From positions 32,530-96,529 of the forward strand of contig CAMOIT010000001.1 of the NCBI GenBank assembly GCA_946616285.1: DNA of 64,000 nucleotides, given 5' to 3'. The stretch is from an uncultured Bacteroidales bacterium (lineage in GTDB: Bacteria; Bacteroidota; Bacteroidia; Bacteroidales; UBA932). Every line of letters begins with the position of its first letter. Within the stretch, counting starts at the first letter, position 1. The translations under genes were made by a program, and so were the position numbers. The notes under the pieces were generated by a model that saw only the letters and a program-made list of their open reading frames with translations, searched no databases and was not told the DNA's origin. Below are positions 6,823 through 28,076 of this stretch, piece by piece.

Positions 6823-8685
6823 CTAGAAATTGATGATTGTCTTGATGGGGAAATGGTCCGACGGCCAATGCTCCGTACCGTCGGCAGTCTGGAACTTCTC
6901 GCGTGCTACCTTGTAGTAGGATACGGTGCATCCGTGGATAAGTATGTGGTCCGGCCGCCATGTGCCGATTGCAGTTTCGGCTTTGTCGGAGTTCATGGTG
7001 CCGGGGTAGCGTAGTTCCGTGAAATCCAGGGTGCCGTCGGCTTTCATGATGTCTCGGCAGTCTTTCCAACGGCCGGAGATGAGAATATTGTAATTGGCGG
7101 CGCCGGAGTCGCAGTTCATGTCGCCGCAGATGATGGAAGGAAGAGATTCGTCAGTATAAGTGGGAGCGAACCACTCTATCAGTTCCGTGGCATTGCGTCT
7201 CTGTGCGTACTCTTTGTCATCGCCAGGACCGCCGGCATTGGGAAGGTCCAGGTGCGTAGTTATGAAGTAGAACTGCTTCCCACTGGCCTTGTGGGTGAAC
7301 TTTGCCCAGTGGGCCGGGCGATTGGTACCGTAGCCGTCTCCGCTGTAGTCTTGGGGTGCTAGAGTGCGGCTGCCTCCAAGCCAGCAACGGCCGTGTGAAA
7401 CCAGCGTAAGGACGGATTTCTTGTAAATGATTGCATCGGTGCTTCCCAGTCCGCCGCCGGTGGTATTATCGGGGAACCACGAGTCGTATTCCGTATTGGC
7501 AGCGTTGTAGATTACCCATCCGTAGCCGGCAAGTTGGTCACTAAGGAAATGGTAGTTGCCGTCATAATCCTTCCCCTTCGTCCAGGTATTAGCGGTCTTA
7601 TAAACCATATTCGTCACCTCCTGGAGCCCCATTATGTCGCAGTCCAGCCACTCTATCATCTCGGCCACGGCAAGGTAGCTGTTAGCCCAGGAACGCTGCT
7701 CCGAAACACCGGGATAAGTATCTGGATTCTCAATCACGGATTTGCGTGCCGACGGAGCCCAGATATTGTATGTTCCGGCCTTTATGGGAACCGTTGTGCT
7801 GCCGCCTGTGGCCTGCATGCTGTCGGCTCCGGCGTTTTCCTCGAACTCCACGCCGTCAATCTTTTCGTAGGAATCTGTGGAAGAGAATACCACCTCGCTC
7901 CCGCCGACATAGTTTACGGGCGTGAAAGCGGCCGCATGCGAGGCCTGCAGGGTGGCGCCGCTCATGAACATCCTGAGAGTCATGGATGAGCCTCCGTTGT
8001 CGTGCAGCACGGCTTTAAGGCCCTTGGAGTAGTTCCCTGGAGGGACAGGGAAGAAAACCTTTACACCCTCGGAGCTCAGGCTGAGCCCGCTGCCGAAAGT
8101 GATGTCCATGTAAGGCGCAGCGCCTTCCGTAGGGGTAAGGCTGCCGTCAAGTGCTCCGGCGTCGTCTTTTCCTACGGTGAACTGTCCGTATATCTTTTCT
8201 CCTTCAACTGCCGACACTTCCATATGAGTGATAAGCGCCGAGCCCTTGAGCGTGAAAAGAACAACGGTGGCAGGGCTCCGCATGGTGGCTATATCGTCCA
8301 GGCTGCCGATATGTCCGTACAACGGAATTCTTTTACCGTCAAGGAACAGCTTGTTGTCCTGGGTCGATGCCGGATACAGAATATTGTATACCGATGCTTC
8401 CACCGGCGTGCTTTCGAAAGTGAAGGATGCCTGGGAATCGCCGGCTTCCTCGGTGGTAAGCGCAACGGATGCCACTCCGTTAACACTTATGGCGTCACCC
8501 TCGCTCCATCGCATGGGGTAGGAGCCGCCGCTTTGTTCTCCAATCTCGGTTTTCGTGTCTTCTACACCGGCACGGAGGATGAAACCTCCGTCCGGGGTCC
8601 TATTGCCGTTTCCAGGTTTGGAACAGGACGCCAGTACAAGAATTCCGGCCAGGGCCAGGCAGTATAATCTACGGTATGTATTCAT
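6823..8685 (-). CDS. Lipoprotein: pilin-like N-domain fused to a C-terminal EEP phosphoesterase
   Basis: Lipobox LASC; TKTEIG...WSEGDAISVNG; C-terminal TYNI, GLQE, GDMN, PSDHFP. Confidence 0.85.
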   Translation of the reverse strand: MNTYRRLYCLALAGILVLASCSKPGNGNRTPDGGFILRAGVEDTKTEIGEQSGGSYPMRWSEGDAISVNGVASVALTTEEAGDSQASFTFESTPVEASVYNILYPASTQDNKLFLDGKRIPLYGHIGSLDDIATMRSPATVVLFTLKGSALITHMEVSAVEGEKIYGQFTVGKDDAGALDGSLTPTEGAAPYMDITFGSGLSLSSEGVKVFFPVPPGNYSKGLKAVLHDNGGSSMTLRMFMSGATLQASHAAAFTPVNYVGGSEVVFSSTDSYEKIDGVEFEENAGADSMQATGGSTTVPIKAGTYNIWAPSARKSVIENPDTYPGVSEQRSWANSYLAVAEMIEWLDCDIMGLQEVTNMVYKTANTWTKGKDYDGNYHFLSDQLAGYGWVIYNAANTEYDSWFPDNTTGGGLGSTDAIIYKKSVLTLVSHGRCWLGGSRTLAPQDYSGDGYGTNRPAHWAKFTHKASGKQFYFITTHLDLPNAGGPGDDKEYAQRRNATELIEWFAPTYTDESLPSIICGDMNCDSGAANYNILISGRWKDCRDIMKADGTLDFTELRYPGTMNSDKAETAIGTWRPDHILIHGCTVSYYKVAREKFQTADGTEHWPSDHFPIKTIINF

Positions 8686-9505
8686 AGTCAATTTCGTCCA
8701 GAGGCTCCAGTATAGCGTTTTTGGGCCAGGTTTCCTGCGGTTCGACGGGTGATGAAGAGGAGAATGCTATCGTGGGGAGTACATATGCTTTCCCCCTTGA
8801 CATGGTAATTCCGGAAGATATATTCCAGCTCATGTTTTCGCCAGAAATACCGGAAAGCGTGAGGCGAAGCCCCTTGCTGAAAGTGCCGGGAGCAAAGGGG
8901 ATGAACACCTGCACAGGCGTTCCGGACAGTGCCAGCGGAGTGTCGTACCCGATAGCAATGCTTGAACTTGCCGAATCCGGCGTCAGGGAGCCGTCGGTGA
9001 AGGATACATTGAACCTGCCTCCGATCTTTTCCCCGCCGGGAGCCGACAGTGCGATGGCGCTGATGGGCTCGTCACCTGTAACCGAAAGCAGCACACCGCA
9101 CCCTGCCTGGTGGAATATGAACAGGGCGCCAAGGTCGTCGGAACTGGCGTACATCGGGGAAACCTTTCCGTCGAAGCTGAGCTTTCCGCTCACTCCCTGC
9201 TCACCGGGGTATAGCAGGTGATATGGCGCGGACAGGGATGGGGCATTAATGCGGAATTCGGCCTCTGATGCCCCTTCAAATGCGGCCGGAAGGGCATTTG
9301 ACAGCGCCCCGTTAAGCGATATTACATCTCCTTGTGCCCAAAGTACGGGGAAACTGCCGCCGGTCTCTGCGCCCACCTGATTCTTGGTCATGGGGGCGCA
9401 CGCGGCTGCTCTCACGGTGTATTCCGCCGGGCCCTTTTCTCCCTTTTGGCAGGAGAGAAGGACCGCGGCCGAAACAACGGTAAGGAGAATATACTTTCCT
9501 TTCAT
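8669..9505 (-). CDS. Stand-alone fimbrillin/pilin-like lipoprotein
   Basis: Lipobox LLSC; same N-module as its neighbours (TKNQVG...WAQGDVISLNG); acidic/aromatic tail EPLDEIDYEYIP. Confidence 0.75.
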   Translation of the reverse strand: MKGKYILLTVVSAAVLLSCQKGEKGPAEYTVRAAACAPMTKNQVGAETGGSFPVLWAQGDVISLNGALSNALPAAFEGASEAEFRINAPSLSAPYHLLYPGEQGVSGKLSFDGKVSPMYASSDDLGALFIFHQAGCGVLLSVTGDEPISAIALSAPGGEKIGGRFNVSFTDGSLTPDSASSSIAIGYDTPLALSGTPVQVFIPFAPGTFSKGLRLTLSGISGENMSWNISSGITMSRGKAYVLPTIAFSSSSPVEPQETWPKNAILEPLDEIDYEYIP

Positions 9506-9517
9506 GACAGGAAATTT

Positions 9518-11920
9518 CTACACTTCAAATTCGTACTGGTCTTCCGCGAGGTCCTCAATATCGACGGGCGTACCGGGGCTGGGAACCGTAACGTTACAGG
9601 TGGCGCTCTTGCCTCCTGCTTCGGCGGTAATCACGGCCTTGCCCGGGGCGATGGCCGTTACTACGCCTTCTGCACTGACGGTTGCCACGTTCTCATCGGA
9701 GGATGTCCAGGTGACAGTCTTGTCGTCGGCGTTTTCTGGATTCACAGTGGCGGTGAGAGTTTCGCTATCTCCGGCTTTAAGGGTGAGCGAAGTCTTGCTC
9801 AGAGTCACAGACTCGACAGGAACGTCCACGTGGGGCACGGTTACGGTACAGGTCGCGCTCTTATCCTCGGCGGTGGCGGTGATTATGGCCGTGCCTTCGG
9901 CGATGGCCGTCACTACGCCCTCGGAGGATACAGTGGCGACGCTTTCATCGGACGATGTCCATGTTACCTGAGGGTAGTCGGCATTATCGGGATTCACCGT
10001 GGCGGTCAGTTTCTCGGTGCTGCCGACAACTATCGTCGTTTCGGTCTTGTCCAGAGTGATGCTTTCCACAGGTACGTACACGTGGGGAACGGTTACCTTA
10101 CATTTGGCGCTCTTGCCTTCGGCTTTTGCCGTGATGGTGGCGGAGCCTTCGGCAATTGCTGTCACAACGCCGTCGGCGCTCACTGTCGCAACTTTCTCGT
10201 TGGACGAAGTCCATGTCACTTCCTGTACGTCGGCATTGGCGGGATTAATGGTTGCGACGAGAGTTTCGCTGGAGCCCACTTCAATAGTAGTTTCATTCTT
10301 GTTAAGGGTGACGCTCTCCACGGGGACGTACACGTGGGGGACGGTTACGGTGCAGGTCGCGCTCTTTGAACCGGACCTTGCAGTAATGGTGGCTGTGCCT
10401 TCAGCAATCGCTTTTACAAGACCGTCGGCGCTCACAGTTGCCACCGATTCGTCGGACGAGAACCAGCTCACGGAAGGATCGTCGGCGTCGGAAGGTGCCA
10501 CTGTGGCATTGAGTTTTTGGGTCTTGCCCACTTCCAGGGTTATTTCGGTCTTGTCCAGGGTGACGCTTTCCACGGGTACAGACACGTGCGGAACAGTTAC
10601 CGCGCAGGTGGCGCTCTTGTCCTCGGCGGTGGCGGTGATGGTGGCCGAACCTTCGGCAATAGCCGTCACGACGCCTTCAGACGACACCTTGGCGATGCTT
10701 TCGTCAGAAGAAGTCCAGGTGATCTGGGGATTATCTGCGTTGGCGGGATTGACGGTGGCATGGAGGGTTTCGCTTCCGCCGACCTCTATGGTGAGAGCAG
10801 TCTTATTAAGGGTAACGCTTTCCACGGGTACATATACGTGGGGCACGGTTACGGTGCAGCTTGCGCTCTTCCCGTCAGCGGTGGCGGTTATCACTGCAGT
10901 GCCTTCTGCTACTGCGGTAACGAGGCCGTCTTTGACTGTGGCCACAGCCTCGTCGGAAGAGGTCCAGGATACTTCCGGATTATCTGCGTCGGCGGGGTTC
11001 ACGGTGGCGGTGAGCTGCTCGGAATTACCAACCTCGATGGTCGTCTCAGTCTTGTCCAGTGTGACGCTCTCTACCGGTACGTATACGTGGGGCACGGTTA
11101 CGGTGCAGCTTGCGCTCTTGTCTCCTTCGGCAGTAGCGGTTATCACTGCCGTGCCTTCGGCGATTGCCGTTACGACGCCGTCCTTAACTGTGGCGACGCT
11201 CTCGTCGGAGCTGCTCCAGGTCACGGAAGGGTCGTCGGCGTTGGCGGGAAGCACGGTGGCAGTGAGTGTCTCGGAATTGCCCACAGCAATAGTCGTTTCC
11301 TTCTTGTTAAGGGTGATGCTCTCGACAGGTACCCATACATGGGGTACAGTGACGATACAGCTGGCACTCTTGTTTCCTGCTTTGGCGGTAATCACGGCCG
11401 TGCCTTCGGCAATTGCAGTTACAACTCCGTCCTTAACAGTGGCGATTGCCGCATCGGATGTGCTCCAGGTCACGGTCGGGTCATCGGCGTCGGCGGGGTT
11501 CACCGTTGCGGTAAGGGTTTCGGTATTGCCGACTTCTATGGTGGTTTCGGTCTTGTTCAGGCTTACGCTTTCCACAGGGATGGCTTTTCTTTTAACCGAC
11601 ACCGAGCATGTGGCCGATTTTTTACCGGCCTTGGCGGTGATTACGGCTGTACCTTCGGCGAGGCCGGTTACCTTGCCGCTATCGTCAACAGATGCTACTT
11701 CCGGCTTGGACGAAGACCATAGCGCCGTCTTGTCATTGGCGTTTTCAGGCCTCACCGATGCCTCCAGGGTATAGGTTTCGCCTATGTACAGGCCAATGAT
11801 GGAATTGTTCAGACTGACTGAAGTTACTTCAATTACAGGTGCGGGCTCCTCCTTTTTGCAGGAAACGGCAAGAATGGAAAGGGCTGCGCCAAGAATCAGG
11901 CCAAGTTTAACAGTTCTCAT
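9518..11920 (-). CDS. Lipoprotein with nine bacterial Ig-like (Big_2) repeats
   Basis: Lipobox AVSC; nine ~83-aa repeats VPVESVTL.KTE...TW.SSDE.VATV...G.VTAIAEG.A.ITA. Confidence 0.92.
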   Translation of the reverse strand: MRTVKLGLILGAALSILAVSCKKEEPAPVIEVTSVSLNNSIIGLYIGETYTLEASVRPENANDKTALWSSSKPEVASVDDSGKVTGLAEGTAVITAKAGKKSATCSVSVKRKAIPVESVSLNKTETTIEVGNTETLTATVNPADADDPTVTWSTSDAAIATVKDGVVTAIAEGTAVITAKAGNKSASCIVTVPHVWVPVESITLNKKETTIAVGNSETLTATVLPANADDPSVTWSSSDESVATVKDGVVTAIAEGTAVITATAEGDKSASCTVTVPHVYVPVESVTLDKTETTIEVGNSEQLTATVNPADADNPEVSWTSSDEAVATVKDGLVTAVAEGTAVITATADGKSASCTVTVPHVYVPVESVTLNKTALTIEVGGSETLHATVNPANADNPQITWTSSDESIAKVSSEGVVTAIAEGSATITATAEDKSATCAVTVPHVSVPVESVTLDKTEITLEVGKTQKLNATVAPSDADDPSVSWFSSDESVATVSADGLVKAIAEGTATITARSGSKSATCTVTVPHVYVPVESVTLNKNETTIEVGSSETLVATINPANADVQEVTWTSSNEKVATVSADGVVTAIAEGSATITAKAEGKSAKCKVTVPHVYVPVESITLDKTETTIVVGSTEKLTATVNPDNADYPQVTWTSSDESVATVSSEGVVTAIAEGTAIITATAEDKSATCTVTVPHVDVPVESVTLSKTSLTLKAGDSETLTATVNPENADDKTVTWTSSDENVATVSAEGVVTAIAPGKAVITAEAGGKSATCNVTVPSPGTPVDIEDLAEDQYEFEV

Positions 11921-11935
11921 ATCGCGTTGTTTTTA

Positions 11936-14305
11936 TTACCATGTGTACTGTACGGGGTTCAGGGGGTCGATGCTGCGGCCGCTGTCTCCTGTTGAGGGAC
12001 CTTCCGTCCTGTTGTATCGGAAACCTATGTAGTTCCATGCTGTGGGGAAGGAGCCGGAATCGGGATATATGATTGAAGGATCCAGATAGGCGCTCTGGGT
12101 GCCGGTCTGCAAGGCGGCATCGGGGATAAGGCGCACATAAACCTTTTCCTTTCCAAGCAGTTCTCCTGCAGGCAGGGCGATATTTATGGCCTTAAAGCCC
12201 GGGGTCTGCCAAAGCTGCGTTACAGGGCTGTCCTGGCATATTTCAGGAAGTGAATAGCGGGCAAGCTGCGTCCAGTTATTGCCGTCCAGAGAGTACTCAA
12301 CCCACCAGTAACGGGGGCCTTCAAGATATGTGGCTACGCCGTTGATCTTCTGTGTGGAAGAATAGAATCGATTCATGGACGATATCTGCATGCTCATGCT
12401 GCCTGACGATATCCCTTTAGTGGAGAACACGAAGGTCGTGTACTGGGGCTTTCCGTTACGGGCGGTGAGGTTCGTGGCCCATGCGCTTCCGGCGTCGGAG
12501 GGAACTTCTCCGTAGCCGTTTTTGTTCACGGAAGCAGCAAGGGAACTGCCTGCTCCGGTCCAGAAGGGACTCATCCAGTCGCTGCCGTCGGCAAGGATAA
12601 TTCCAAGGCCGTTTTCATTGCCCGTGGCATCGATGCCGGAGGGACCCAGATATGACCAGTCGGAGGCTGTGATTATAGGAAGTTTTCCAGCGCGACCGTC
12701 TTCGGAATAGGGTTTGGCGTCGGGATAAACAAAGCTGTAAGTGAAATAGGCTTTGGTGTCGCCGTCGGTGGCGTAATAACGCTCAAGGTTCTTAGCCGTG
12801 ATGTAACGCCATTCGCAGATAATCTCGGAGAAGGAGCCGCTCATTGTGGCTTTCATCCCGAAGTCCTCCCTTGAGGTGTGGCGCAGTTGATACCGGCCGA
12901 TATTTCCCCAGGTCTCGCTGTCGGCCGAAGAGCTGTCCATGTAGCAGAAGCGGGGGTAAAGCTCGTGTACAAGAACGCCGCTCATGGGACCGCTTCCCTG
13001 AGGGGCGGCCTTACCGTCTCGCCTGTAAGGGCATGTGACGTTGGTGTACACATACATGGAAGCGCCGGTTATGTCGCGTAACAGGATAGGGAATTTTGTT
13101 ATCTTGTTGGCGCCGGTTGCGCTGGTGTACTTCTCGCTGATTGGAGTGAGTGAGCCTTTGCGCACCGGAAGTTCGCAGTCAGGTATGGTGACATAGGTGA
13201 AAATATCGCGGTCCGACAGTTCTGCAATGCGTTTTTCCTTATGGGGGATGCCTTCCCTGCCAAGGTGTTCGCACTCTATTGCCATGTTGCCCTTCGCACC
13301 TGTGATGTAATAGTACACGGGATCGGTTTCGGGGTCGATTACGGCAGAACGGTACAGTGTGGCCCCGTTCAGGTTCATCTTCAGCTTGTCGCCCTGCAGG
13401 AAGCTGTTGTCCTGGGGCGTGCGCATCTGCACCCTTATGCCTGCGGAGCCGTCAAGGGCCTCAAGGTAAAGGGTGGACCATGCTACGTCGTAGTCGATGG
13501 ATGTAAGGCCGATCTGGCGGGGGTCGCCAGCGTTGCCTGAGGCTTTGTCGCTAACCACAATGCCCTCCACGGTAAGGTCCTCGGAAAGGTCGGCGCCCTC
13601 TTCCGTTGCCATTGCAAACAGCTGGGGGAAAGTTAGTTCCCGTCCTGCGGAATCGGAACTTGAAAGCTGGCTTATCTGGAAATCCTGCCTGTATGCGGTG
13701 CCGAATGCGTCGGTATAGCTCACGCTGGCCGAAGCCCGGCGCATCTGCTGCAGTGGATTGGCATTATAGCTGAAACTTATTGTGCCTGAAGACAGTTTCA
13801 CGTCGGTGATCCAGTCTTCGCCGCCTTCGCAGTACCAGTCAAGTACAAAGTCGGAATCCGGAATGTTGGTGTTCAGTTTCACCGATTGGCTTCCTCCCTT
13901 GGAACCGGGGAGCAACACCACGGGGGAATCCGCCCCCAGAGTGGGCTCCTTAACGCCCTTCTGCCTCAGGGTAAGGGTATCGCGATGGTTGGTTTCCTCG
14001 ATGGAAACCACCACCAGCCCCTTCCTGGGAAGGCCGTTGTTGGCTCCGTAAGAAAGGGAGAAACCTTCCTTGCCTTCAGCTCCCGTTTCGGGGACTCTTA
14101 CCCAGTCCGCCTCGGTGGATATGGCATAGCTACGGGTGGCTATTACTGCCACGTCAAGGCTGCCTGCGCCGCTTTCAAGGTCCACTGTCTTAACGGGATA
14201 CCCAAGGCCCGAGCCTTTGTAAATCGTGCGCTCGGAAGGATCCTTGATGCAGGACAGGGCTGCTGCTGCGGCTACTGCGTATAATATGATTCTTGCTGTC
14301 TTCAT
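11936..14305 (-). CDS. Lipoprotein with BACON domains and a DUF5689-like domain
   Basis: Lipobox ALSC; BACON-like W..N...R motifs; VEGIVVSD..SGN OB-fold-like segment typical of DUF5689 proteins beside SusC/D. Confidence 0.7.
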   Translation of the reverse strand: MKTARIILYAVAAAAALSCIKDPSERTIYKGSGLGYPVKTVDLESGAGSLDVAVIATRSYAISTEADWVRVPETGAEGKEGFSLSYGANNGLPRKGLVVVSIEETNHRDTLTLRQKGVKEPTLGADSPVVLLPGSKGGSQSVKLNTNIPDSDFVLDWYCEGGEDWITDVKLSSGTISFSYNANPLQQMRRASASVSYTDAFGTAYRQDFQISQLSSSDSAGRELTFPQLFAMATEEGADLSEDLTVEGIVVSDKASGNAGDPRQIGLTSIDYDVAWSTLYLEALDGSAGIRVQMRTPQDNSFLQGDKLKMNLNGATLYRSAVIDPETDPVYYYITGAKGNMAIECEHLGREGIPHKEKRIAELSDRDIFTYVTIPDCELPVRKGSLTPISEKYTSATGANKITKFPILLRDITGASMYVYTNVTCPYRRDGKAAPQGSGPMSGVLVHELYPRFCYMDSSSADSETWGNIGRYQLRHTSREDFGMKATMSGSFSEIICEWRYITAKNLERYYATDGDTKAYFTYSFVYPDAKPYSEDGRAGKLPIITASDWSYLGPSGIDATGNENGLGIILADGSDWMSPFWTGAGSSLAASVNKNGYGEVPSDAGSAWATNLTARNGKPQYTTFVFSTKGISSGSMSMQISSMNRFYSSTQKINGVATYLEGPRYWWVEYSLDGNNWTQLARYSLPEICQDSPVTQLWQTPGFKAINIALPAGELLGKEKVYVRLIPDAALQTGTQSAYLDPSIIYPDSGSFPTAWNYIGFRYNRTEGPSTGDSGRSIDPLNPVQYTW

Positions 14306-14310
14306 TTGCA

Positions 14311-18172: not shown

Positions 18173-21100
18173 TTAGAATTTAATTTGAATCAAGCCCACG
18201 ATCTTCCGTGGACGGGGATATGCGCCAATATCGGCCCTTCGGATGGTGGATTCCTGGTCTTCTACCTTAGAGGAAACGTCAGGGTCGAAGCCGTTGTAGC
18301 CGGTCCAGAGGTAAATGTTGTCGGCGCTGATGCCGAGCCTTATGGACTGCATCCATTTCACCTTTTTCATTTCAAAGGTGTAGGAAAGGCTGACGGTCTT
18401 CAGGCGGAGGAAGGAAGCGTCGTGCACCATGAAGTTGCTGGGGAGCATGCTGTAACCGCTGGCGCCAGCAGCCGGGATGTCCGAATTGGGATTACGGTAG
18501 GGATGCCAGCCGTTAAGCATGTAACGGTACTGGTTGGAGCAGTATGTTCCGGCCATGAAGAACTCCGAATAGTTGTAGATGCTTCCGCCCACAGAGTAGG
18601 AGAAGAACACGCCAAGGTCGAAGCCGAATATGTGGAAGTTGTTCTGGAGGCCGCCGTAAACTATGGGGTCGGCGTCTCCAAGGAAAACAAGGTCCTGGTT
18701 GTCCAGGATGCCGTTATGGTCCTGGTCAACGTAGCGGGGACGTCCGGCCTTGTAGGGCTTGGCGTAGAAGTCCACGTACTGGTGGGTGATATCGTTCTCC
18801 TCGACCTCCTCGGTGTTATGCCACACGCCGCCGTACTGGAAGCCCCAGAGGGAGTTCAGGGGATAGCCGGCGCGGTAGCCGTAAATCATGTAGCCCTTGT
18901 TTGGGTCGTTCATGGCAACGACTTCGCTTTCTCCGCCTATGTCTTCCACCATCTGTTTATTATGGGAAATAGTGAAGTCGGTGGTCCAGGAGAAGTTCTT
19001 GGTCACGATGTTCTTTGTGGAGAGCGAGAATTCCACGCCCTTGTTGGAAGTGCGTCCTAGGTTCTGAGTGTAGCGGCTGTAACCAGTCTGCTGGGCTTTC
19101 TGCACGTCCAGAAGGAGGTCATGGGTGTTCGCAAGGTATCCTTCCAGGGTGAATTTCAGACGGCCTTTCAAAACAGCAACGTCAAGGGCGGCGTTGTAAA
19201 GGTCGGTCTTTTCCCAGGTCAGGTTAGGGCTGTCCAGGCGGGATGGGTAGTAGTAGGTGGCCTGCCCGTCGCCAAGAAGGTAACCAGAGGTGGATGCGGA
19301 AAGCTGCTGCAGGGATTTGTAGGGAGACAGGGCGTCGTTACCGGTGCGTCCGGCGGAAAGGCGCAGTGCCAGTTCCTGGAAAACCCTCGTACGCTTTATC
19401 CAGGGCTCGTTTCCGGCGTTCCACTTGAAAGCGGCCGAAGGGAAGAAGCCCCACTTGTTGTTGGCTGCGAAGTTGGAGGAGCCGTCGGCCCTGCCGGTGA
19501 AGGTGAGGTAATAGCGTTTCTTATAGTTGTAGTTAACCCTGCCCATGAACGACATGCGCTTTACCTCGCTTTCAGAGGATGTGATGGTGTAGTTGTCCTT
19601 GTCTCCTATGGCGCTAAGGTTGTTCCAGGTTAGGTCGTCCACCAGCATGCCTTTACCCACAATCTGGTGCACTTCGTAACCCTTATAGTAAACAGACATG
19701 CCGCCCATAACGTCCAGATGGTGGTTCTTGCCAAAGTCGGTCTTGTAGGTTATGGTGTTGTCGGAGTTAAGCTGGGTGATGGCCGATGTGTTTCTGGTCA
19801 CTTCGCCTCCGGACGCAGCCAGGCGCCTTGCCGGCAGTGTTCCGGGCAGGTATTTGTAAAGGTCAGAATTGTATTGGTACCAGGTGTTGCGGCTCTTGAT
19901 GACAAGGCCTTTTATCGGTGTGAGTTCCAGCGCTATGGTGTGGGTATTGGATACGGTCTTTCTCTGGTTCGTGCTCTGGACGATGGAGAGGTAGGGGTTG
20001 TTGAAAGGCTGGCCCTGACCGTAGTTGTACAGGTCGTTTACCTCGCTGTCGGTTCCCAGGAGAGGGGAAATGTACACCGCCCCGCTCCAGATGCTTGAGC
20101 CGCCGATATTGGCTTTGTTATTGTTGGCTATGCGGTAAAGGGCCGATACGTTGTACTCCAGCTTGATCCAGTCGGCGAAGCGGTGGCTCAGGTTCAGGCG
20201 GCCGGTAAAGCGCCTGTTGCCGGAATCCAGCACGATGCCTTCGTCGTCGGCGTAGGAAACGGAGCCGAAGTAGTTGGTCTTCTTGTTGTTCCCGGCCACT
20301 GAAAGGGCATATTCCATGAAGGGGGCCACGCGGGTGATTGCTTTCACCCAGTCGGTGCCTTCGCCCAGGGCTTCCGGGTCGGCGTACTTGGATGTATAGC
20401 TGGGAGTTGCCGGATACACCATGCCGGTCGAGGACTTGGAGAAGTCTATTCGGTCGTTGTTGTATGTGGCGAACTCCTGCGCGTTCATCACGTCCAGGCT
20501 GCGGGCGAGGGATGAGAAGCCCAGTTTTGCCGTTGCGGTAACCGTGGCTTTAGTCTGCACCGTAGAACCCGCTTTGGTGGTGACGATGATTACTCCATTC
20601 GCGCCCTGAGCACCGTAGATGGCGGTTGAGGATGCGTCTTTAAGGACGGAGATGGACTCGATATCGGCCGAGTTCAGTTCTCCCAGGTCCTGGACTGCGT
20701 TCATCACTCCGTCCACCACTATCAGGGGTTCGTTGCCTGCGGTGATGGAGCGTGCGCCGCGGATGCGGATTGAGGTGCCTTCGTTGGGGTCGCCTGATAC
20801 GCTCACGATGTCGGCGCCTGCCACGCGGCCCTGCATGGCCTGGTCGACGGCCAGGGTAGGGGCGTTTTCAACGTCGGTCATCTTTACCGTTGCCACCGAG
20901 CCTGTGAGGTCGGTTTTCTTTTGCTCGCCGAAGCCTATCACCACTACTTCGTCCAGGAAGGTGGTGTCTTCTTCCAGGACTATCTCGAAGCGGCGCTGCT
21001 TGCCCACTTTCATCTTGACGGTCTTGTAGCCCATGGAGTCGAAGATGAGGACGGCGTCTTCGGACGGAACTTTCAGTGTGAAGTTACCGTCTCCTCCGCT

Positions 21101-21259
21101 GATGGTGCCGGTGGTGGTCCCTTCCACCTGTACGGCTGCGCCGGGAACCGGCGCGCCGCCTTCGTCCACTATGCGGCCACTCACGTTCACGGGGCCCTGG
21201 GCCATGGCCGTGAGACTCACCGCCATGGCCGCCAGTGCCGATATTAGCCTTTTAAACAT
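18173..21259 (-). CDS. susC: SusC/RagA TonB-dependent transporter
   Basis: LDEVVVIGFG, DLTGSV, IRIRG, DIESISVLKDASSTAIYG, RADGSSNF, LTWEKT, YPRPR; C-terminal Phe. Confidence 0.97.
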   Translation of the reverse strand: MFKRLISALAAMAVSLTAMAQGPVNVSGRIVDEGGAPVPGAAVQVEGTTTGTISGGDGNFTLKVPSEDAVLIFDSMGYKTVKMKVGKQRRFEIVLEEDTTFLDEVVVIGFGEQKKTDLTGSVATVKMTDVENAPTLAVDQAMQGRVAGADIVSVSGDPNEGTSIRIRGARSITAGNEPLIVVDGVMNAVQDLGELNSADIESISVLKDASSTAIYGAQGANGVIIVTTKAGSTVQTKATVTATAKLGFSSLARSLDVMNAQEFATYNNDRIDFSKSSTGMVYPATPSYTSKYADPEALGEGTDWVKAITRVAPFMEYALSVAGNNKKTNYFGSVSYADDEGIVLDSGNRRFTGRLNLSHRFADWIKLEYNVSALYRIANNNKANIGGSSIWSGAVYISPLLGTDSEVNDLYNYGQGQPFNNPYLSIVQSTNQRKTVSNTHTIALELTPIKGLVIKSRNTWYQYNSDLYKYLPGTLPARRLAASGGEVTRNTSAITQLNSDNTITYKTDFGKNHHLDVMGGMSVYYKGYEVHQIVGKGMLVDDLTWNNLSAIGDKDNYTITSSESEVKRMSFMGRVNYNYKKRYYLTFTGRADGSSNFAANNKWGFFPSAAFKWNAGNEPWIKRTRVFQELALRLSAGRTGNDALSPYKSLQQLSASTSGYLLGDGQATYYYPSRLDSPNLTWEKTDLYNAALDVAVLKGRLKFTLEGYLANTHDLLLDVQKAQQTGYSRYTQNLGRTSNKGVEFSLSTKNIVTKNFSWTTDFTISHNKQMVEDIGGESEVVAMNDPNKGYMIYGYRAGYPLNSLWGFQYGGVWHNTEEVEENDITHQYVDFYAKPYKAGRPRYVDQDHNGILDNQDLVFLGDADPIVYGGLQNNFHIFGFDLGVFFSYSVGGSIYNYSEFFMAGTYCSNQYRYMLNGWHPYRNPNSDIPAAGASGYSMLPSNFMVHDASFLRLKTVSLSYTFEMKKVKWMQSIRLGISADNIYLWTGYNGFDPDVSSKVEDQESTIRRADIGAYPRPRKIVGLIQIKF

Positions 21260-21282: not shown

Positions 21283-24200
21283 TCAGTTCCCCACATAGGC
21301 ACCCATTATGGTGCCGTTGCGGTCATTACCCTTCTGGTCAATGGTCAGAAAACTTGTATCAACGGTCTGGGTCGGAGTGTACCTGAGGGTAAGGCCGGAA
21401 AGCTCCTCGCTAGTCATGCCGCAGGAAATTGCAGGGTTGTCAGCCACAGTCGTGACAGCGTGTACGCCGTCCGAAAGAGAGGACAACATAGTATTAATAT
21501 CGAATGCAGAAGGATTGGAAAGGACAGATTTCCTCCAGACGAAGTTTCCTGCACCGGTATTGTTCACCCTGTCGGCAGAGGTATAAGATGTTGCGACAAC
21601 TATGGATTTGTCTACATGATAGAGCAGACGATCGTTACGGACATCGTCATTGGTGCTGGTACCCGTGTTGCCGGAGATGATGCTATTGTAAACATCCACA
21701 ACCTGACTGAAAGTCTCCTTGTAAATGCCACCGGTGCCGGCCGATGCGGTGTTCCCGGTAACTGTGCAACTAATCATAGCCAGACGTGTGATGTTCGCTT
21801 TATAGGTGTCATTATCCTGCCTTGTTACATAAATGCCGCCAGCATTGGTCCCGTTGTTGCCTGACACGGTGCAGTTGACCATGATAAGGTCATTCTTTCC
21901 CTTGGAGTAGACACCTCCGGCACCGCCTGTAGCGGTGTTACCGGTGATAGCCGTATTATAAATGGTAACCGGGACGTAATTGGCCGTGGTTTGGGTTATG
22001 TTGATTCCGCCACCGCTACCACTGGCCGTATTATTGCTAATATCGCACCCAGTGAGCGTTAGAGCCCCACTAGTATAAATAGCTCCACCATTTGCGGCAC
22101 TGTTATTTGAAATAGTGGTGCCATCAATACTGAGATTACTAGAACTGTTGTGAATAGCTCCGCCGCTACCACTGGCCGTATTATAGCTAATATCGCACCC
22201 GGTGAACGTTAGAGCCTCACTAGTATAAATAGCTCCACCATTTGCGGCACTGTTATTTGAAATAGTGGTGCCATCAATACTGAGATTACTAGAACTGTTG
22301 TGAATAGCTCCGCCGCTACCATTACCTGCGCTATTGTAAAGAAAAGTAGTTTCATCACTGATGGTAGCGGCACAGCTGGCTTGAATCTGCATTGCACCGC
22401 CCGTTCCGGTCCCTGTATTATACTCAAACATACTTTTAGAGATGCTTAGAGTTGTGGCTCCGTCAGTACGGATTGCTCCGGCGTTTGTGGCCGAATTGCG
22501 TTTGAATGTGGCGTTCGTTATTGTAACATCTGCTCCGGCTTCAAGGTGAATTGCGCCACCATTTGAACCGTTATTCAGGCGGAAAGACGCCTTGTCAATA
22601 ATAAGAGTTCCCTTTGTGAGTATTGCTCCCCCACGTTTAGATGTAGCAACATTGCTCACGAACTTCGTGCTGTCCTGGCCAAAAGAAATGTCCATTGTCC
22701 CGTCATGCTGATAAATAGCACCTCCATTCGCAATGCTGGTGGAATTCTGTATTGTCCCTCCCTTGATGTAAATAGTGCCTGCTCTCTGAGCGATGTAACC
22801 ACCTTGACCATTGCTTGAAGTTACATCATTATTGTCAGCTATGCAGTTCTCAATCGTAACGACGGTATCGTCCCCGACTTCCATCACAATGGCTCCACCG
22901 TAACCAGCGTTTGCGCCGCTAGCGATATTGTCGCTGAATGTGCAACCGTCAAATTTCACATTCAGTTCACCTGTCGCGTTGAAATCTATAGCGGCACCAC
23001 CTAGTGTGCTAGAACTGTTCAAATTGCAGAAAATGCAGTCTTTGAAGGTGACGTTGCCAGCTGCTGTTGAATTAAAGAAGAATGCGATACCGCGGGTGTT
23101 GATGGCGGTCGAAGGGGCTGATTGCGTAAAAGTGATGCTATCAAATGTCCAGCCGTTCATCGTGGCACCGTTTAAGTAGAAGATACGGTCGGTTTCGGTG
23201 TCGTTGCTAACCCACTTTGTGGCATGATTCACGGCGTGCTTACCTTCAAGAGAGGTACCTGTATTGCTGGAAGGATATCCACCATCAATGATAAGGTTAA
23301 TATTAGCAAGCGGTTTTTCCGCACCGGTGTCCCATGCACCGGATTGGAAGGTCAGCGTTCCTCCGTTTGCGGCTTGAATGTTATATGTTCCTTCGGCAAA
23401 GTGGATCTTGGCATTGTGAAGACGCCAGGTGCTATTGACGCCATTGTCATTGGTTTTGTTCTTGATAAGCTTGAGGAAAAGGGAGAGATCACCGGCGTTG
23501 TTCCAAGAAGAACCATCGCCTTTACCGTCTGCTGTCGTCTTTATGAACCAGTCGGCGTGAATCATAGGGTCAATGTCTCCGAGATCAGTAACATGGCTGC
23601 GGGTGGTGGTGATGGCTCTCTTGCTCAGTGCTCCCAACTCGAGATCGCCCGAATTACTCTTCCTGGCCTTAACTCCGAAACCGGTGTCAAAATCCGCACC
23701 GGGTCCAACGGCAAAGTAGTAATCCTTGGCAGTGTTGGTCGCAATTGAGTTTAGGTTTGCATATTTGGTATTGTCATAGCCGGTAATTACGGCGGTCCTT
23801 GCGCCTACAGTGACATTCTGTTCTTCGTCAAATGTTACACCGTATGTGTTGGCTATAACCTTAGCAAGCCCATTGGATGTGAACTCAAAACGGTTATAGG
23901 GGTTTGCTGCCGTTGTGTGGAACTTGATGATGTGCGTCAGGTTCTTGAAGGCGAAGCTTGCGGCTTCTTTGGTGGTGCGTGCGGCCATCATATTGGCCGA
24001 CTTAAAGGTTCCGTTCTGATACCGGGGAATACCGAAGTCGATGGTGCCGCCTTCGCGAAGGGCAAACGCTCCCGTGGTAGGATACACAGCATAGAGTGTC
24101 TCGGCGGAGGCGGAAACATTAGCGGTAACTGTGTAATGACCTTCTCCGTCATCCTCAACTTTTGCGTCTACATAATCGCTTTCGCCTGTACCCCAGATAA

Positions 24201-24480
24201 TGCGGATCTCGTCGTTTTCGTCCCAAAGGATGTCAGCTTCGTTGTTAGGGTCTTTATCGCCCAAGTGAGTCTTTGTTTTGGCATCCTTTTCTGAAGACAC
24301 TGTGAACGTAAGGCTTATCATTCCCTCGGGAACTGTAGGATTAGTCTCATCTGGGTCGTTATTTTCTGGATCGACCACCTCAGGATCATCCTTGGCGGGG
24401 TTCTCGGGGACTACGGGATCAAGCTCCTGCGTGCAGGAGAATATCGCTGCAAGAGCGAACAAGGTAAATATCTTTTTCAT
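21283..24480 (-). CDS. Lipoprotein: pilin-like N-domain plus right-handed beta-helix (GGAI/FxxN, Pmp-like repeats)
   Basis: Lipobox IFSC; TKT..W...D.IRIIW; GDGSSW; many GGAI/NxA repeats; paralogue of 24651-27905. Confidence 0.85.
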   Translation of the reverse strand: MKKIFTLFALAAIFSCTQELDPVVPENPAKDDPEVVDPENNDPDETNPTVPEGMISLTFTVSSEKDAKTKTHLGDKDPNNEADILWDENDEIRIIWGTGESDYVDAKVEDDGEGHYTVTANVSASAETLYAVYPTTGAFALREGGTIDFGIPRYQNGTFKSANMMAARTTKEAASFAFKNLTHIIKFHTTAANPYNRFEFTSNGLAKVIANTYGVTFDEEQNVTVGARTAVITGYDNTKYANLNSIATNTAKDYYFAVGPGADFDTGFGVKARKSNSGDLELGALSKRAITTTRSHVTDLGDIDPMIHADWFIKTTADGKGDGSSWNNAGDLSLFLKLIKNKTNDNGVNSTWRLHNAKIHFAEGTYNIQAANGGTLTFQSGAWDTGAEKPLANINLIIDGGYPSSNTGTSLEGKHAVNHATKWVSNDTETDRIFYLNGATMNGWTFDSITFTQSAPSTAINTRGIAFFFNSTAAGNVTFKDCIFCNLNSSSTLGGAAIDFNATGELNVKFDGCTFSDNIASGANAGYGGAIVMEVGDDTVVTIENCIADNNDVTSSNGQGGYIAQRAGTIYIKGGTIQNSTSIANGGAIYQHDGTMDISFGQDSTKFVSNVATSKRGGAILTKGTLIIDKASFRLNNGSNGGAIHLEAGADVTITNATFKRNSATNAGAIRTDGATTLSISKSMFEYNTGTGTGGAMQIQASCAATISDETTFLYNSAGNGSGGAIHNSSSNLSIDGTTISNNSAANGGAIYTSEALTFTGCDISYNTASGSGGAIHNSSSNLSIDGTTISNNSAANGGAIYTSGALTLTGCDISNNTASGSGGGINITQTTANYVPVTIYNTAITGNTATGGAGGVYSKGKNDLIMVNCTVSGNNGTNAGGIYVTRQDNDTYKANITRLAMISCTVTGNTASAGTGGIYKETFSQVVDVYNSIISGNTGTSTNDDVRNDRLLYHVDKSIVVATSYTSADRVNNTGAGNFVWRKSVLSNPSAFDINTMLSSLSDGVHAVTTVADNPAISCGMTSEELSGLTLRYTPTQTVDTSFLTIDQKGNDRNGTIMGAYVGN
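22013..22321. repeat. Near-perfect 150-bp in-frame tandem duplication (two copies)
   Basis: ccgctacca recurs at 22013, 22163 and 22313, with nearly identical sequence between. Confidence 0.9.
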
Positions 24481-24492
24481 AATCATTCCGTT

Positions 24493-24633
24493 TTAAAGTT
24501 CCCAGTCGCCGTATTCATCGATGGTGGCTTTTTCGGTGCTTACGTCCCTCGTTTGCGATGTCATTATCGGCTTTGTCGCTCTAGTTTCCACTATCTCAAC
24601 AGTGGGGGGGGGATATTTTTGTAATTTTTTCAT
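24493..24633 (-). CDS. Unannotated 46-aa YxxP-type peptide
   Basis: MKKLQKYPPPTVEIVETRATKPIMTSQTRDVSTEKATIDEYGDWEL*. Fills the gap between two co-oriented lipoprotein genes; below the ORF-track cutoff. Confidence 0.8.
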   Translation of the reverse strand: MKKLQKYPPPTVEIVETRATKPIMTSQTRDVSTEKATIDEYGDWEL

Positions 24634-24650
24634 ACCTTGTTTTGTTTATG

Positions 24651-27600
24651 TTAGTTTCCAACATATGCGCCCATTACGGTGCCGGTGCGGTTGTTGCCCT
24701 TCTGGTCAACGGTCAGGAAACTCGCATCCAGAGTCTGGGTCGGAGTGTACCTGAGGGTAAGGCCGGAAAGCTCCTCGCTAGTCATGCCGCAGGAAATTGC
24801 AGGGTTGTCAGCCACAGTCGTGACAGCGTGTACGCCGTCCGAAAGAGAGGACAACATAGTATTAATATCGAATGCAGAAGGATCGGAAAGGACAGATTCC
24901 CTCCAGACGAAGTTCCCTGCATCGGTATTGTTCACCCTGTCGGCGGAAGTGTAAGAAGTTGCTGCAACAATGGACTTGTCCACATGATAGAGCAGACGAT
25001 CATTACGGGCATCGTCATTGGTTTCGGTACCTGTGTTGCCGGAAATGATGCAATTGTAAACATCAACCACCTGGCCGAAGGTCTCCTTGAATATGCCGCC
25101 GGTGCCGTTGGAAGCCGTGTTGCCCGTTACGGTGCAGCTTACCATAGACAGACGTGTAATGTTGGCCTTATTGGTGTCACTATCCTGCCTGGTTACGAAA
25201 ACGCCGCCGCAATTGGTACCGGTGTTGCCGGACACGGTGCAGTTGACCATAATAAGGTCATTCTTACCCCTGGAATACACGCCTCCGGCACCGCCTGTGG
25301 CAGTGTTACCGGTGATAGCCGTATTGTAAATGGTAAGCGGAACGTAATTGGCCGTGGTCTGAGTCACGTTAATTCCGCCACCGATTTTTGCGGTATTGCC
25401 GGCAATGGAAGAATTCTTCACGACAATGCTGGTGGCAACACCATTGATATTGATACCACCACCATTACCGCCTGAAGCTGAATTGCCGGTGATATCGCAA
25501 CTGTCCACCGTGAGGGTACAGGCTCCGTCCGTGCGGATTGCACCCCCGTTGGTCGCAGGGTTGGCGGAGAAGTATGAGTTGCTTATGGTGACGTTGGCGC
25601 CTGCTTCCAGATGGATGGCAGCGCCGTTATTGGCTACGTTCTGCTGGAACACTGCACCGTCGATGCTCATAGCGGCTTTTGCGAGGATGGCGCCCGCACG
25701 CTTGCCGGGAGCCTTGTTGCCGATAAAGTAAGTATGGTCGCTCTCATTGTCCATAATGGTAACCGTGCCGGCTGCCTGATAGATGGCGCCGCCGTGGGAG
25801 TCGCCATTGCTGCCGGCATTGCTCTCGTTGCCATTGAAAACAGTACCCATGATGATTGCTTCGCCATCAACTACGTGCAGTCCGCCGCCGGTGGTAGTGG
25901 CTTTGTTCTCCTTAATGATTCCACCTGTCAGGTTAAGCGTTCCGCCACTGAGGTGGATGGCGCCGCCGGTAGTGCCCGACATGTTGTTGTGGATGTTGCA
26001 ACTATTGACATTAAGTGTGCCGTCCGTGCCATTGACATTGATTGCGCCACCCTGGGACGATGTCTTGCAGTTGAATATTTCCAGGCCGTCCTGCAGTGTG
26101 AGACTGCCGCTGCCGTAATAGATGGCACCACCGTTTGCTGTTTTGCAGTTGCTTACAGAACCTCCGCTGATGCTTACGCTTGCACCGTCAACGTAAACGG
26201 CGCCGCCCTGCTGGGCTGTATTAACATCTCCGTCCTCGATGCCAAGGCCGGTGAAAGTGCAGTTGGTTATGTTTACGTTACCGCCGCGGGCGCGGATGGA
26301 ACCGCCGTTGCTGGCTTTGTTCCCGGTAAATGTGCAGTCGGTGAACTTGACAGTGGCGTTGGAGGCATAGACATAGGCTGCGCCGCCCACATTGCACTGG
26401 TTGCCGCTGAAGGTGCAGCCGGTGAAATTGATTTCTGCAGTTACGCCGCCGTGGATATAGACAGGGCCGCCGTTGACAGTGCCGGTCTGGACAAAGTCCT
26501 TGAAATAGCAGTTATTAAAGGTAATTGTGCCGGAAGTTGTACCGTCAAAGTGGAGCACGTCTCCGGGCAGGATGTGGTCTCCATTGGCTTCGAAGGTGAT
26601 GCCGTCGAAGGTCCAGCCGCTCATACGGCAACCCTTGGCCTCGAATACGCGGAATGTATCGTCGGTCTGGGCGGTCTGCCACTTGGTGGGATGGTTCACG
26701 GGATCCTTGCCCGTGAGTGCGGTGCCGGTAAGGCTGTTAGGGTAGCCACCGTCGATGGTGAGATTGAGGTTTGTGAGCTGGTATTTCGAATCGGCCTCCA
26801 TATCCCAGGCTTTATCGTCAAAGCTCAACGTTCCTTCGTTTGCCGCATATATATCATAGGTACCTTCGGCAAAGTGGATCCTTGCGTTGTGCAGGCGCCA
26901 GGTACTATTGATGCCCTTGTCATTGGTTTGGAATTTAATGAGGTTAAGGAATAAAGCAAGGCCGCCTGCGTCTTCCCATGAAGAACCGTTGCCGGTGCCG
27001 CCGGGCTTGATGAACCAGTCGGGATGGATCATGGCGTCAATGTCGCCAAGGTTGGTAACACGGCTGCGGTCTGTGGAGATAGCCTTTTTGCTAAGTGCAC
27101 CGTACTCGTAGTCGTCTCCTTTGCTGCTCATGCGTGCCTTTACGCCGAAACCGCTTGAGAAATCGGTCTCGGGACCAACTGCGAAGTAGTAATCACTGTT
27201 CGTCGTTACAGTATTGAGGTCGGCGTATTTGGTGTTGTTATAGCCGTCAATCGTCGCGGTCTTTGCACCGATGGTCACATTCTGATTGCTGTCGAAAGTT
27301 ACGCCGTACGTGTTGGCGATAACTCTTGCATTTTCATTTGATGTGAACTCGAAGCGGTTGTATGGGTTGGTTGCCGTTGTGTGGAACTTGATAATGTGCG
27401 TCAGGTTCTTGAAGGCGAAGCTTGCTGCCTCCTTTGATGTGCGTGCCGCCATCATGTTGGCCGATGCGAAGGTCCCGTCCTGATACCTGGGAATGCCGAA
27501 GTCGATGGTGCCGCCGTCGCGAAGGGCGAATGCGCCGTCCGCGGGATATACGGCGTAGTAAGTCTCAGCATCAGCTACGTCGGCGCTTACCGAGCCGTTT

Positions 27601-27905
27601 ACGACGGTTGCATTGGCGTAATCAGCGGCGCCGGTGCCCCAGATGATTCTTACCTGGTCGCCGTCGGTCCAGGTGTGGTGGACGCCGTCCCAGTCAGTCT
27701 TGGTGTCTTCTGATGACACGGTGAATGTGAGACGGATCATGCCTTCGGGAACGGGTTTGTCGTCCGGATTGACTTCGCCGGGCTTGTCTGTCTGCTCCTG
27801 TCCGTTATCCGGCCTGTTCTCTTCGGGAATAGGTATCTCCTTTGAGCAGGAGAAACTGAAGGTGGCTATCGCGCAGATTGCCAGAAAAGAATAAAACTTT
27901 TTCAT
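24651..27905 (-). CDS. Lipoprotein: pilin-like N-domain plus right-handed beta-helix (paralogue)
   Basis: Lipobox SFSC; TKTDW...WTDGDQVRIIW; GNGSSW; GGAI repeats; C-terminus nearly identical to that of 21283-24480. Confidence 0.85.
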   Translation of the reverse strand: MKKFYSFLAICAIATFSFSCSKEIPIPEENRPDNGQEQTDKPGEVNPDDKPVPEGMIRLTFTVSSEDTKTDWDGVHHTWTDGDQVRIIWGTGAADYANATVVNGSVSADVADAETYYAVYPADGAFALRDGGTIDFGIPRYQDGTFASANMMAARTSKEAASFAFKNLTHIIKFHTTATNPYNRFEFTSNENARVIANTYGVTFDSNQNVTIGAKTATIDGYNNTKYADLNTVTTNSDYYFAVGPETDFSSGFGVKARMSSKGDDYEYGALSKKAISTDRSRVTNLGDIDAMIHPDWFIKPGGTGNGSSWEDAGGLALFLNLIKFQTNDKGINSTWRLHNARIHFAEGTYDIYAANEGTLSFDDKAWDMEADSKYQLTNLNLTIDGGYPNSLTGTALTGKDPVNHPTKWQTAQTDDTFRVFEAKGCRMSGWTFDGITFEANGDHILPGDVLHFDGTTSGTITFNNCYFKDFVQTGTVNGGPVYIHGGVTAEINFTGCTFSGNQCNVGGAAYVYASNATVKFTDCTFTGNKASNGGSIRARGGNVNITNCTFTGLGIEDGDVNTAQQGGAVYVDGASVSISGGSVSNCKTANGGAIYYGSGSLTLQDGLEIFNCKTSSQGGAINVNGTDGTLNVNSCNIHNNMSGTTGGAIHLSGGTLNLTGGIIKENKATTTGGGLHVVDGEAIIMGTVFNGNESNAGSNGDSHGGAIYQAAGTVTIMDNESDHTYFIGNKAPGKRAGAILAKAAMSIDGAVFQQNVANNGAAIHLEAGANVTISNSYFSANPATNGGAIRTDGACTLTVDSCDITGNSASGGNGGGININGVATSIVVKNSSIAGNTAKIGGGINVTQTTANYVPLTIYNTAITGNTATGGAGGVYSRGKNDLIMVNCTVSGNTGTNCGGVFVTRQDSDTNKANITRLSMVSCTVTGNTASNGTGGIFKETFGQVVDVYNCIISGNTGTETNDDARNDRLLYHVDKSIVAATSYTSADRVNNTDAGNFVWRESVLSDPSAFDINTMLSSLSDGVHAVTTVADNPAISCGMTSEELSGLTLRYTPTQTLDASFLTVDQKGNNRTGTVMGAYVGN

Positions 27906-27917
27906 ATCTCGAACTTT

Positions 27918-28076
27918 TTATATTTCCCATTCGTAATCGTCCTCTTCGGGGTCGTAGATGAGACCCTCGACGGATGCTCCAAAATTTTTACTTTCGCACA
28001 GAAAGCCTTCTGGCCAAAGAGTGCGGTACCTGGCTTCAGGAGCCTTGTACTCCGGTTTTTTCTGGAATAGTTTCAT
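27918..28076 (-). CDS. Unannotated 52-aa YxxP-type peptide, probable first gene of the operon
   Basis: MKLFQKKPEYKAPEARYRTLWPEGFLCESKNFGASVEGLIYDPEEDDYEWEI*. A-rich upstream region; ends 12 nt before the next ATG. Confidence 0.85.
   Translation of the reverse strand: MKLFQKKPEYKAPEARYRTLWPEGFLCESKNFGASVEGLIYDPEEDDYEWEI

Follow-up and report, generated by a model that had tools for sequence, protein, structure and literature searches.

Two small unannotated open reading frames (ORFs), found in a polysaccharide utilization locus (PUL) of an uncultured Bacteroidales bacterium, are members of a large unnamed family of ribosomal peptides of 40–55 residues, with a constant head and a variable acidic core. 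Both are located in the 64,000-nt stretch of contig CAMOIT010000001.1 analyzed here (hereafter the window), on the minus strand, as are all the features of the window cited below, and each precedes a gene encoding a lipoprotein that combines a pilin-like module with a beta-helix. We propose that these peptides are composed of a leader and a core, and that the core would be matured, exported and docked, as a donor strand supplied in trans, in the pilin-like module of the downstream partner. We regard this as a serious possibility, slightly short of an even chance. An initial annotation, made from the letters alone, had already read the two ORFs as leader-processed docking strands, and that interpretation is partly supported by the present analysis.

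A Family of Small YxxP Peptides

Both ORFs exist with the sequences first quoted, at 27918-28076 for peptide 1 (52 aa) and 24493-24633 for peptide 2 (46 aa), with 12 and 6 nt, respectively, separating them from the ATG of the genes encoding lipoproteins of 1084 and 1067 aa. Single-sequence searches with either peptide returned almost nothing, and a family profile was required. At least 11 ORFs of the same layout are present in the whole metagenome-assembled genome (MAG; 1.6 Mb, 70.6% complete), each directly upstream of a lipoprotein gene. A profile built from nine copies retrieved 86 representative clusters out of 1.84 billion proteins, nearly all of 40-56 residues, while a wider profile, applied to 201 genomes of the same taxonomic family, detected members in 64 of them, at most 16 in any one genome. 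No Pfam, NCBIfam or PDB-sequence match was found for the family, its ESM Atlas neighbors were unnamed clusters, and literature searches turned up nothing that describes the peptide family, the peptide-lipoprotein pairing or the gene cassette presented below.

The 135 members share a fixed register, with Lys at position -3, Tyr at 0, Pro at 3, Glu at 13 (75%), Ile or Leu at 16 (90%), Cys at 17 (65%, otherwise mostly Leu) and Ser at 19 (73%), followed by a variable stretch rich in Asp and Glu and by Trp, Phe or Tyr near the C-terminus. The YxxP motif is invariant, and the consensus of the head reads MKK-Y-x-x-P-E-x-E-V-V-E-L-x-x-E-G-x-[IL]-[CL]-x-S. Both window peptides keep this register. In peptide 1, the putative leader corresponds to residues 1-29 (MK..K-Y10-xx-P13...E23...L26-C27-x-S29; 27990-28076) and the candidate trans donor strand to residues 30-52, KNFGASVEGLIYDPEEDDYEWEI (27921-27989). 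In peptide 2, the head comprises residues 1-26 (Y7..P10..I23-M24-T25-S26; 24556-24633) and the core and tail, QTRDVSTEKATIDEYGDWEL, extend over 24496-24555. A further family-like ORF of this genome (..KNNYTPPFTEVVRLQIEQTVAISYD..DDDEYL; C9:833-991), upstream of a 596-aa lipoprotein gene, has no in-frame ATG, and may use another start codon or be decaying. A 1642-aa protein (P0008), which matched positions 11-31 of the profile in ten stretches, was set aside as probably a repeat-driven false positive.

Linkage to lipoprotein genes extends to relatives. Of the 52 peptides in 42 loci, 49 are accompanied within 300 nt by a gene on the same strand; lipoproteins are encoded by at least 40 of these genes, and 29 of the 49 match the hidden Markov model (HMM) of the pilin-like module, the gap between peptide and lipoprotein start being mostly 3-19 nt. 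Such very short gaps, together with the position of peptide 1, first after the operon promoter, could also be expected of regulatory upstream cistrons that couple or control translation of the lipoprotein, the peptide itself being functionless. This explanation appears improbable, as the register is fixed at the amino-acid level across the 135 members, the tails of orthologues are identical or near-identical, and the occurrence of the family goes with that of a PqqD, peptidase and exporter cassette. A reading frame shared with the downstream gene was considered and dropped: six of seven gaps are divisible by 3 here, but only 13 of 40 are in relatives, as chance predicts, which also argues against a regulatory cistron. 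Moreover, peptide 1 and its orthologue in the relative's locus L091 differ 13, 5 and 17 times at the first, second and third codon positions, a pattern that fits coding constraint.

The Peptide Core and the Pilin-Like Module of Its Partner

The partners of both peptides share one homologous module with other lipoproteins of the operon. It forms the N-terminal 230-320 residues of the 1084-, 1067-, 622-, 627- and 278-aa proteins and an internal part of the 786-aa protein (HMM E-values of 1e-63 to 1e-85). The 278-aa protein consists approximately of the module and a tail only. Its AlphaFold2 (AF2) model, with a predicted local distance difference test (pLDDT) score of 72, has type V pilins as top Foldseek matches in the PDB, namely 4k4k, 3t2l, 3sy6, 5nf4 (Mfa3) and 6jzk (FimA), with E-values of 1e-8 to 1e-4; the pilins matched include BF1858, BF1861, Mfa4 and Mfa2. 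The model thus predicts a type V pilin fold, made of two transthyretin-like beta-sandwich domains. A PDB sequence search with the 278-aa profile returned nothing. A lipoprotein signal peptide with a lipobox cysteine is found in the 1084-, 1067-, 622-, 627- and 278-aa proteins (..FSFSC, ..IFSC, ..LLSC, ..LASC and ..AISC, respectively). T40 and K41 are invariant in the 278-aa family, and this Thr-Lys pair (TK) is also conserved in the beta-helix family. In the 1084-aa partner of peptide 1 (24651-27905; Pfam Beta_helix), the pilin-like module covers residues 1-300 (27006-27905), with the conserved TK at residues 68-69, and is followed by a right-handed beta-helix. The 1067-aa partner of peptide 2 (21283-24486) likewise combines a pilin-like module (23539-24486) with Beta_helix.

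Modeling of peptides against modules truncated after TK, suggested in the initial annotation as a check on docking, was performed for the pair formed by peptide 1 (alignment of 4 sequences) and residues 70-300 of the 1084-aa protein (alignment of 48 sequences), and placed the tail part of the peptide in the groove. The interface score ipSAE reached 0.83, versus 0.18 for the best control, a mark attained by 58 of 80 solved complexes and by 2 of 110 mismatched pairs. Three docking runs had at least 92% of their contacts in common, with a partner pLDDT of at least 61; solved type V polymers may have helped the complex model by likeness. The modeled interface involves residues 26-45 and 47-52 of peptide 1, the head being excluded, and the tightest contacts are predicted between N31-V36 and two neighboring strands of the module. 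On the module side, contacts are made by the N-terminal sandwich and by the C-terminal end. Type V pili use two C-terminal donor strands, which take the place of the anchor strand and of one strand in the C-terminal domain (PMC13655056), a geometry which the modeled contacts would fit. The claim of a docking strand has thus gained a model for the tail part of peptide 1, whereas its binding, cleavage and export are steps that we infer.

The comparison of peptides with their partners points in the same direction. Over 47 pairs, the similarity of the cores, taken after C-x-S, was correlated with that of the partner modules (Spearman rho 0.35, Mantel p 0.0005), and the similarity of the heads was not (rho 0.006, p 0.47). 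From these sequence comparisons, the head resembles a generic leader and the remainder a partner-specific core, in line with the leader-processed peptide initially put forward. In addition, when window positions 27921-28076 were compared with 4666-4824 of L091, DNA identity was about 75% over the end of the regulator gene, the promoter and the peptide head, then rose to 100% at the tail codons and stayed there over the initial ~130 nt of the lipoprotein gene. It looks as if a recombination event had its limit within the 159-nt ORF, and the jump in identity implies that the tail travels with the partner.

An Acidic Tail Shared With Lipoproteins of the Operon

The initial annotation had also noticed that three lipoproteins with no upstream peptide end in a tail similar to that of the peptides. 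The three cis tails are as quoted there: ILEPLDEIDYEYIP (8672-8713) in the 278-aa minimal type V pilin-like lipoprotein (8669-9505), which has the conserved TK, DIEDLAEDQYEFEV (9521-9562) in the 800-aa lipoprotein with nine Big_2 repeats (9518-11920), and SIDPLNPVQYTW (11939-11974) in the 791-aa BACON/DUF5689 lipoprotein (11936-14311), which has no pilin module. So is the tail-like motif STDSYEKIDGVEFE (7840-7881) at the domain junction of the 622-aa lipoprotein (6823-8691), where a pilin-like module meets an endonuclease/exonuclease/phosphatase (EEP) domain. The gaps upstream of the three cis-tail genes are of 15 nt at most and leave no room for a peptide ORF. Both peptide partners lack the tail and end in GAYVGN, and two lipoproteins have neither tail nor peptide, as initially cautioned: the 627-aa protein, made of a pilin-like module and a GLUG-repeat domain (4927-6810), and the 786-aa BACON protein (14311-16671), whose pilin-like module is internal (about residues 208-468) rather than N-terminal.

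The shared tail is borne out for peptide 1 and left doubtful for peptide 2. Among the 1329 gene C-termini of the genome, the peptide 1 tail matched best with an operon neighbor, the 800-aa lipoprotein (score 34; DPEEDDYEWEI versus LAEDQYEFEV), and the peptide 2 tail alone, whose likeness to the cis tails is weak, was not distinguishable from chance. P0009/L091 has the peptide 1 tail unchanged, and L035 also keeps it. In another organism, the tail LEDMTENDYTFTF of the L037 peptide, which is encoded upstream of a beta-helix homologue and ends in VTLEDMTENDYTFTF, is nearly that of the 278-family protein P0092, LEDMTEDDVTFEL, with a score of 37 for a null distribution of mean -1, standard deviation 5.7 and maximum 24; its ending VTLEDMTENDYTFTF is likewise close to identical to the cis tail LLEDMTEDDVTFEL of a 278-family member. 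Alignment of the 278-aa family indicates that its tail is kept down to 42% overall identity (..LE.[LM].E....[FY]E[LY]..), and the tail is also conserved in the 791-aa orthologue in L035/L092, an orthologous PUL, which ends in IDPMNPIDYIW. Likeness between short, acidic, disordered ends with aromatic residues could be a mere coincidence of composition, as the peptide 2 tail would suggest, and as would the 10-25% of family peptides which score above the 99th percentile against any acidic cis tail, a result that points to a composition effect. We hold such a coincidence to be improbable as a general explanation, in view of the position-specific matches of peptide 1 and of the L037 peptide, and of the conservation of tails within families that have diverged so far.

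An anticorrelation between upstream peptide and cis tail had been anticipated, and the counts lean that way: a tail was found in none of the 47 complete partners in relatives, versus 6 of 70 other lipoproteins, a test with little power because no more than about 9% of lipoproteins have a tail at all. The acidic tail is likewise missing from all 118 homologues of the beta-helix partner, which end in MGAYV... In this genome, tails are carried by 18 of 199 lipoproteins and by 34 of 1130 non-lipoproteins. This enrichment could also reflect a sorting or recognition signal addressed to a third component, whether for surface exposure, vesicle loading or docking to SusC/SusD or to the beta-barrel assembly machinery, as could the presence of tails on non-pilin Big_2 or BACON proteins and the unbalanced counts of donors and acceptors. 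These counts are 3:3 in operon C7, 1:1 in C3 and in C29, and 5 to 5-6 in the window operon, with 3 donors for 5-6 modules in the orthologous PUL, and balance was dropped as evidence; many pilin-like modules probably keep their own anchor strand. A sorting signal is nevertheless unlikely in our opinion, since the complex model puts the tail part on the pilin module with high confidence relative to controls, the core co-varies with the partner module, and the nine clearest tails of the genome are all in operons with pilin-like lipoproteins or a family peptide.

A Candidate Maturation and Export Cassette

The processing enzyme that the initial annotation had missed in the window has a candidate in relatives, which strengthens the interpretation given there. 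A four-gene cassette was found immediately next to peptide-lipoprotein pairs at three loci from two genera (L046, 2791-5999; L079/L049, 6444-9696 of L079; L080/L051, 6449-9704 of L080). It encodes an HprK-like P-loop protein of ~293 aa, an S24/S26-like serine peptidase of 149 aa with the motif KGxSMLP, a PqqD protein of 88 aa (PF05402, E-value 8e-15) and an ABC exporter of 546 aa. The four HMMs match side by side in six further genomes, one of them with a different gene order, and two more genomes have the cassette with one gene undetected (further loci L081 and L085-L089). The cassette usually occurs once per genome. The NCBIfam models nearest to its PqqD are lasso PqqD chaperones, below their cut-offs, and the other nearest models are those of SynChlorMet ScmC/ScmD, no curated cut-off being reached. 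In two genomes of the same genus, at L082 (G079) and L084 (G149), the HprK-like gene occurs in a form of 347-360 aa, lacking peptidase, PqqD and exporter neighbors, and each genome has several peptides.

Across the 201 genomes, 56 have both the peptide family and the HprK-like gene, 8 the peptide only, 25 the gene only and 112 neither, which corresponds to an odds ratio of 31 (Fisher p 2e-21, uncorrected for phylogeny). Counted by genus from the listed tallies, the same split is 12, 1, 4 and 13, and the HprK-like gene is present in 11 of 13 genomes of the same genus as this MAG.

From a mechanistic point of view, the PqqD-type recognition protein would bind the YxxP head, and the S24/S26-like peptidase would remove it, probably after C-x-S. 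With its small residues at -3 and -1, the conserved C-x-S is reminiscent of the sites cut by signal peptidases, and cleavage at this point would release very nearly the portion of the peptide found docked in the model. The HprK-like kinase might modify the peptide, and the ABC exporter would carry the core to the periplasm. There, the core could fill the groove of the partner as a donor strand, replacing the partner's own lipidated anchor strand, which extends from the signal peptide to the conserved TK, and so cap the partner, stabilize it or release it from its lipid anchor. The same type of strand would be built in at the C-terminus of the 278-, 800- and 791-aa lipoproteins, and cargo-carrying pilin-like proteins, the C-terminus of which is occupied by an enzyme domain, would receive it in trans. 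A broader and more tentative picture, which we consider somewhat less probable than the trans docking itself, is that of an undescribed surface assembly of Bacteroidales. In it, leader peptides in the style of peptides made on ribosomes and modified after translation (RiPPs) would be recognized by PqqD, trimmed and exported by the ABC transporter as free donor strands that complete, cap or release enzyme-carrying pilin-like lipoproteins, while C-terminal tags would dock other proteins, giving rise to modular enzyme assemblies.

Several observations weigh against trans docking. The peptides do not look like substrates of a Sec or lipoprotein signal peptide pathway, with a median longest uncharged run of 7 residues, glutamates alternating through the head and a median net charge of -6; without a signal peptide, their export rests wholly on the cassette. 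The latter was not found in this MAG, itself 70.6% complete. Among the eight peptide-only genomes, five are listed at 90% completeness or more, the other three, including this MAG, being at most 73% complete, and no peptide was detected in the 25 genomes with the HprK-like gene only. The lack of a phylogenetic correction in the co-occurrence statistics counts here too. In the docking model, the receptor was deliberately truncated after TK, which left the groove open, and the controls were unrelated small proteins, not non-cognate peptides of the family. The AF2 monomer of the 278-aa protein placed its own tail at low confidence. Finally, the tail criterion is partly compositional, as 3% of non-lipoproteins have such a tail, the peptide 2 tail stands at chance level, and donors are outnumbered in the orthologous PUL.

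The leader-core layout and the make-up of the cassette resemble clusters of RiPPs that depend on a RiPP recognition element, and HPr-kinase homologues are known to phosphorylate lasso precursors (PMC7533575). The peptides could accordingly be precursors of a secreted RiPP-type product, a signal or an antimicrobial, the lipoprotein being its receptor, carrier or immunity factor. We consider such a product unlikely: each of the copies in a genome, as many as 16, has its own core and its own lipoprotein, the similarity of the cores tracks the partner module, the same tail is the built-in C-terminus of Sec-exported lipoproteins, and the cassette has no cyclase or other ring-forming enzyme. The resemblance of YxxP to the leader motif of lasso peptides, noted in the initial annotation, does not extend to a lasso-type system. 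A B2 protease (PF13471) was not found in the genome, and the cassette comprises HprK-like, S24-like, PqqD and ABC genes only, with neither lasso cyclase nor B2 protease among them, the cyclase family itself having been left out of the searches; the lack of these two enzymes argues that this is not a lasso system.

Comparison With Known Systems

The trans docking proposed here has its closest parallel in type V pili, which assemble by protease-mediated donor-strand exchange, FimA/Mfa1 of Porphyromonas gingivalis and their Bacteroides homologues. Common features are the lipoprotein precursors, the two-beta-sandwich fold, a conserved basic residue (here in TK) after the N-terminal anchor strand and, as we propose, C-terminal strands filling the groove of another subunit. 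Type V tip and adaptor pilins have no donor strand of their own (PMC13655056), like the cargo-bearing, tip-like subunits of the window. Unlike in type V pili, the proposed donor is here a separate gene for a peptide that would supply 20-25 residues, or the C-terminus of non-pilin Big_2 and BACON/DUF5689 proteins, and the genes belong to a PUL with enzyme-like cargo, where polymerization is not expected.

With the paeninodin and pseudomycoidin lasso clusters, the family and its cassette have in common a putative leader with YxxP, a stand-alone PqqD, and a cassette that combines an HprK-like P-loop protein with an ABC exporter. They differ from these clusters by an S24/S26-like serine peptidase in place of the lasso cyclase and B2 transglutaminase-type protease, and by precursors that are numerous and scattered over the genome, each linked to a lipoprotein gene, instead of a single one within the cluster. 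Moreover, no penultimate Thr is conserved in the leader, the residue before the conserved Ser being Thr in 23%, Gln in 20% and Ala in 20% of members.

Chaperone-usher pilins can be complemented in vitro by free synthetic peptides, such as FimH by the FimG donor-strand peptide. There too, a free peptide fills and stabilizes an incomplete immunoglobulin-like pilin domain. That system is a laboratory tool and involves an unrelated pilin fold, whereas the partner proposed here would be natural and genetically encoded.

Gut and rumen Bacteroidales very commonly encode pilin-like lipoproteins with fused enzyme or binding domains, and what holds, assembles or releases these proteins at the surface has, to our knowledge, not been explained. 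If trans docking is correct, machinery of the RiPP type would be newly used for building protein rather than a natural product, and a new variation on the strand exchange of type V pili would be added. A role would be assigned to thousands of unannotated small genes, and the peptide, tail and cassette would offer a direct handle on the display or release of glycan-degrading enzymes.

Organization of the Locus

The presence of a SusC-like and SusD-like pair (18173-21259 and 16631-18166) identifies the operon as a PUL. Its genes are ordered as follows: a SusR-type regulator, peptide 1, the 1084-aa lipoprotein, peptide 2, the 1067-aa lipoprotein, SusC and SusD, then the lipoproteins of 786, 791, 800, 278, 622 and 627 aa, and a 966-aa phosphatase-GH97 fusion. 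The regulator (28323-29885; DUF6377, equivalent to SusR_C) corresponds to TPR_SusR plus SusR_C in newer Pfam naming, and its counterparts in the syntenic loci L035 and L091 likewise sit immediately upstream of the peptide. On its 3' side, and 5' of peptide 1, a hairpin with a T-run and a TAATTTTG box (28143-28150) are found, which makes peptide 1 the first cistron of the operon. The box fits the -7 consensus of Bacteroidetes, TAnnTTTG, and is retained in the orthologous locus L091; a sigma-70 promoter and terminator scan, a method ill-suited to Bacteroidota, gave nothing useful.

Contigs from RNA libraries of ruminant gut (three studies) span parts of the 1084-aa gene, and in a relative one such contig joins the beginning of the lipoprotein gene to the final 32 nt of peptide 1. 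Peptide 2 was left uncovered, which carries no information, and neither transcription nor translation can be shown by contigs of this kind.

The locus is unusually rich in EEP domains (window 2027-8691), with the 622-aa protein and the 966-aa EEP-GH97 fusion. Two more EEP domains are located past the low end of the window (genome C1:31790-34554), and the orthologous PULs L037 and L092 are alike in this respect. This richness hints at a phosphorylated or phosphodiester-linked glycan as substrate. As regards the origin of the organism, DNA near-identical to window positions 24400-28300 was found in sheep, goat and bovine gut metagenomes from 13 studies, which makes it a Bacteroidales member of the ruminant gut, and the source name of one homologue is Candidatus Cryptobacteroides.

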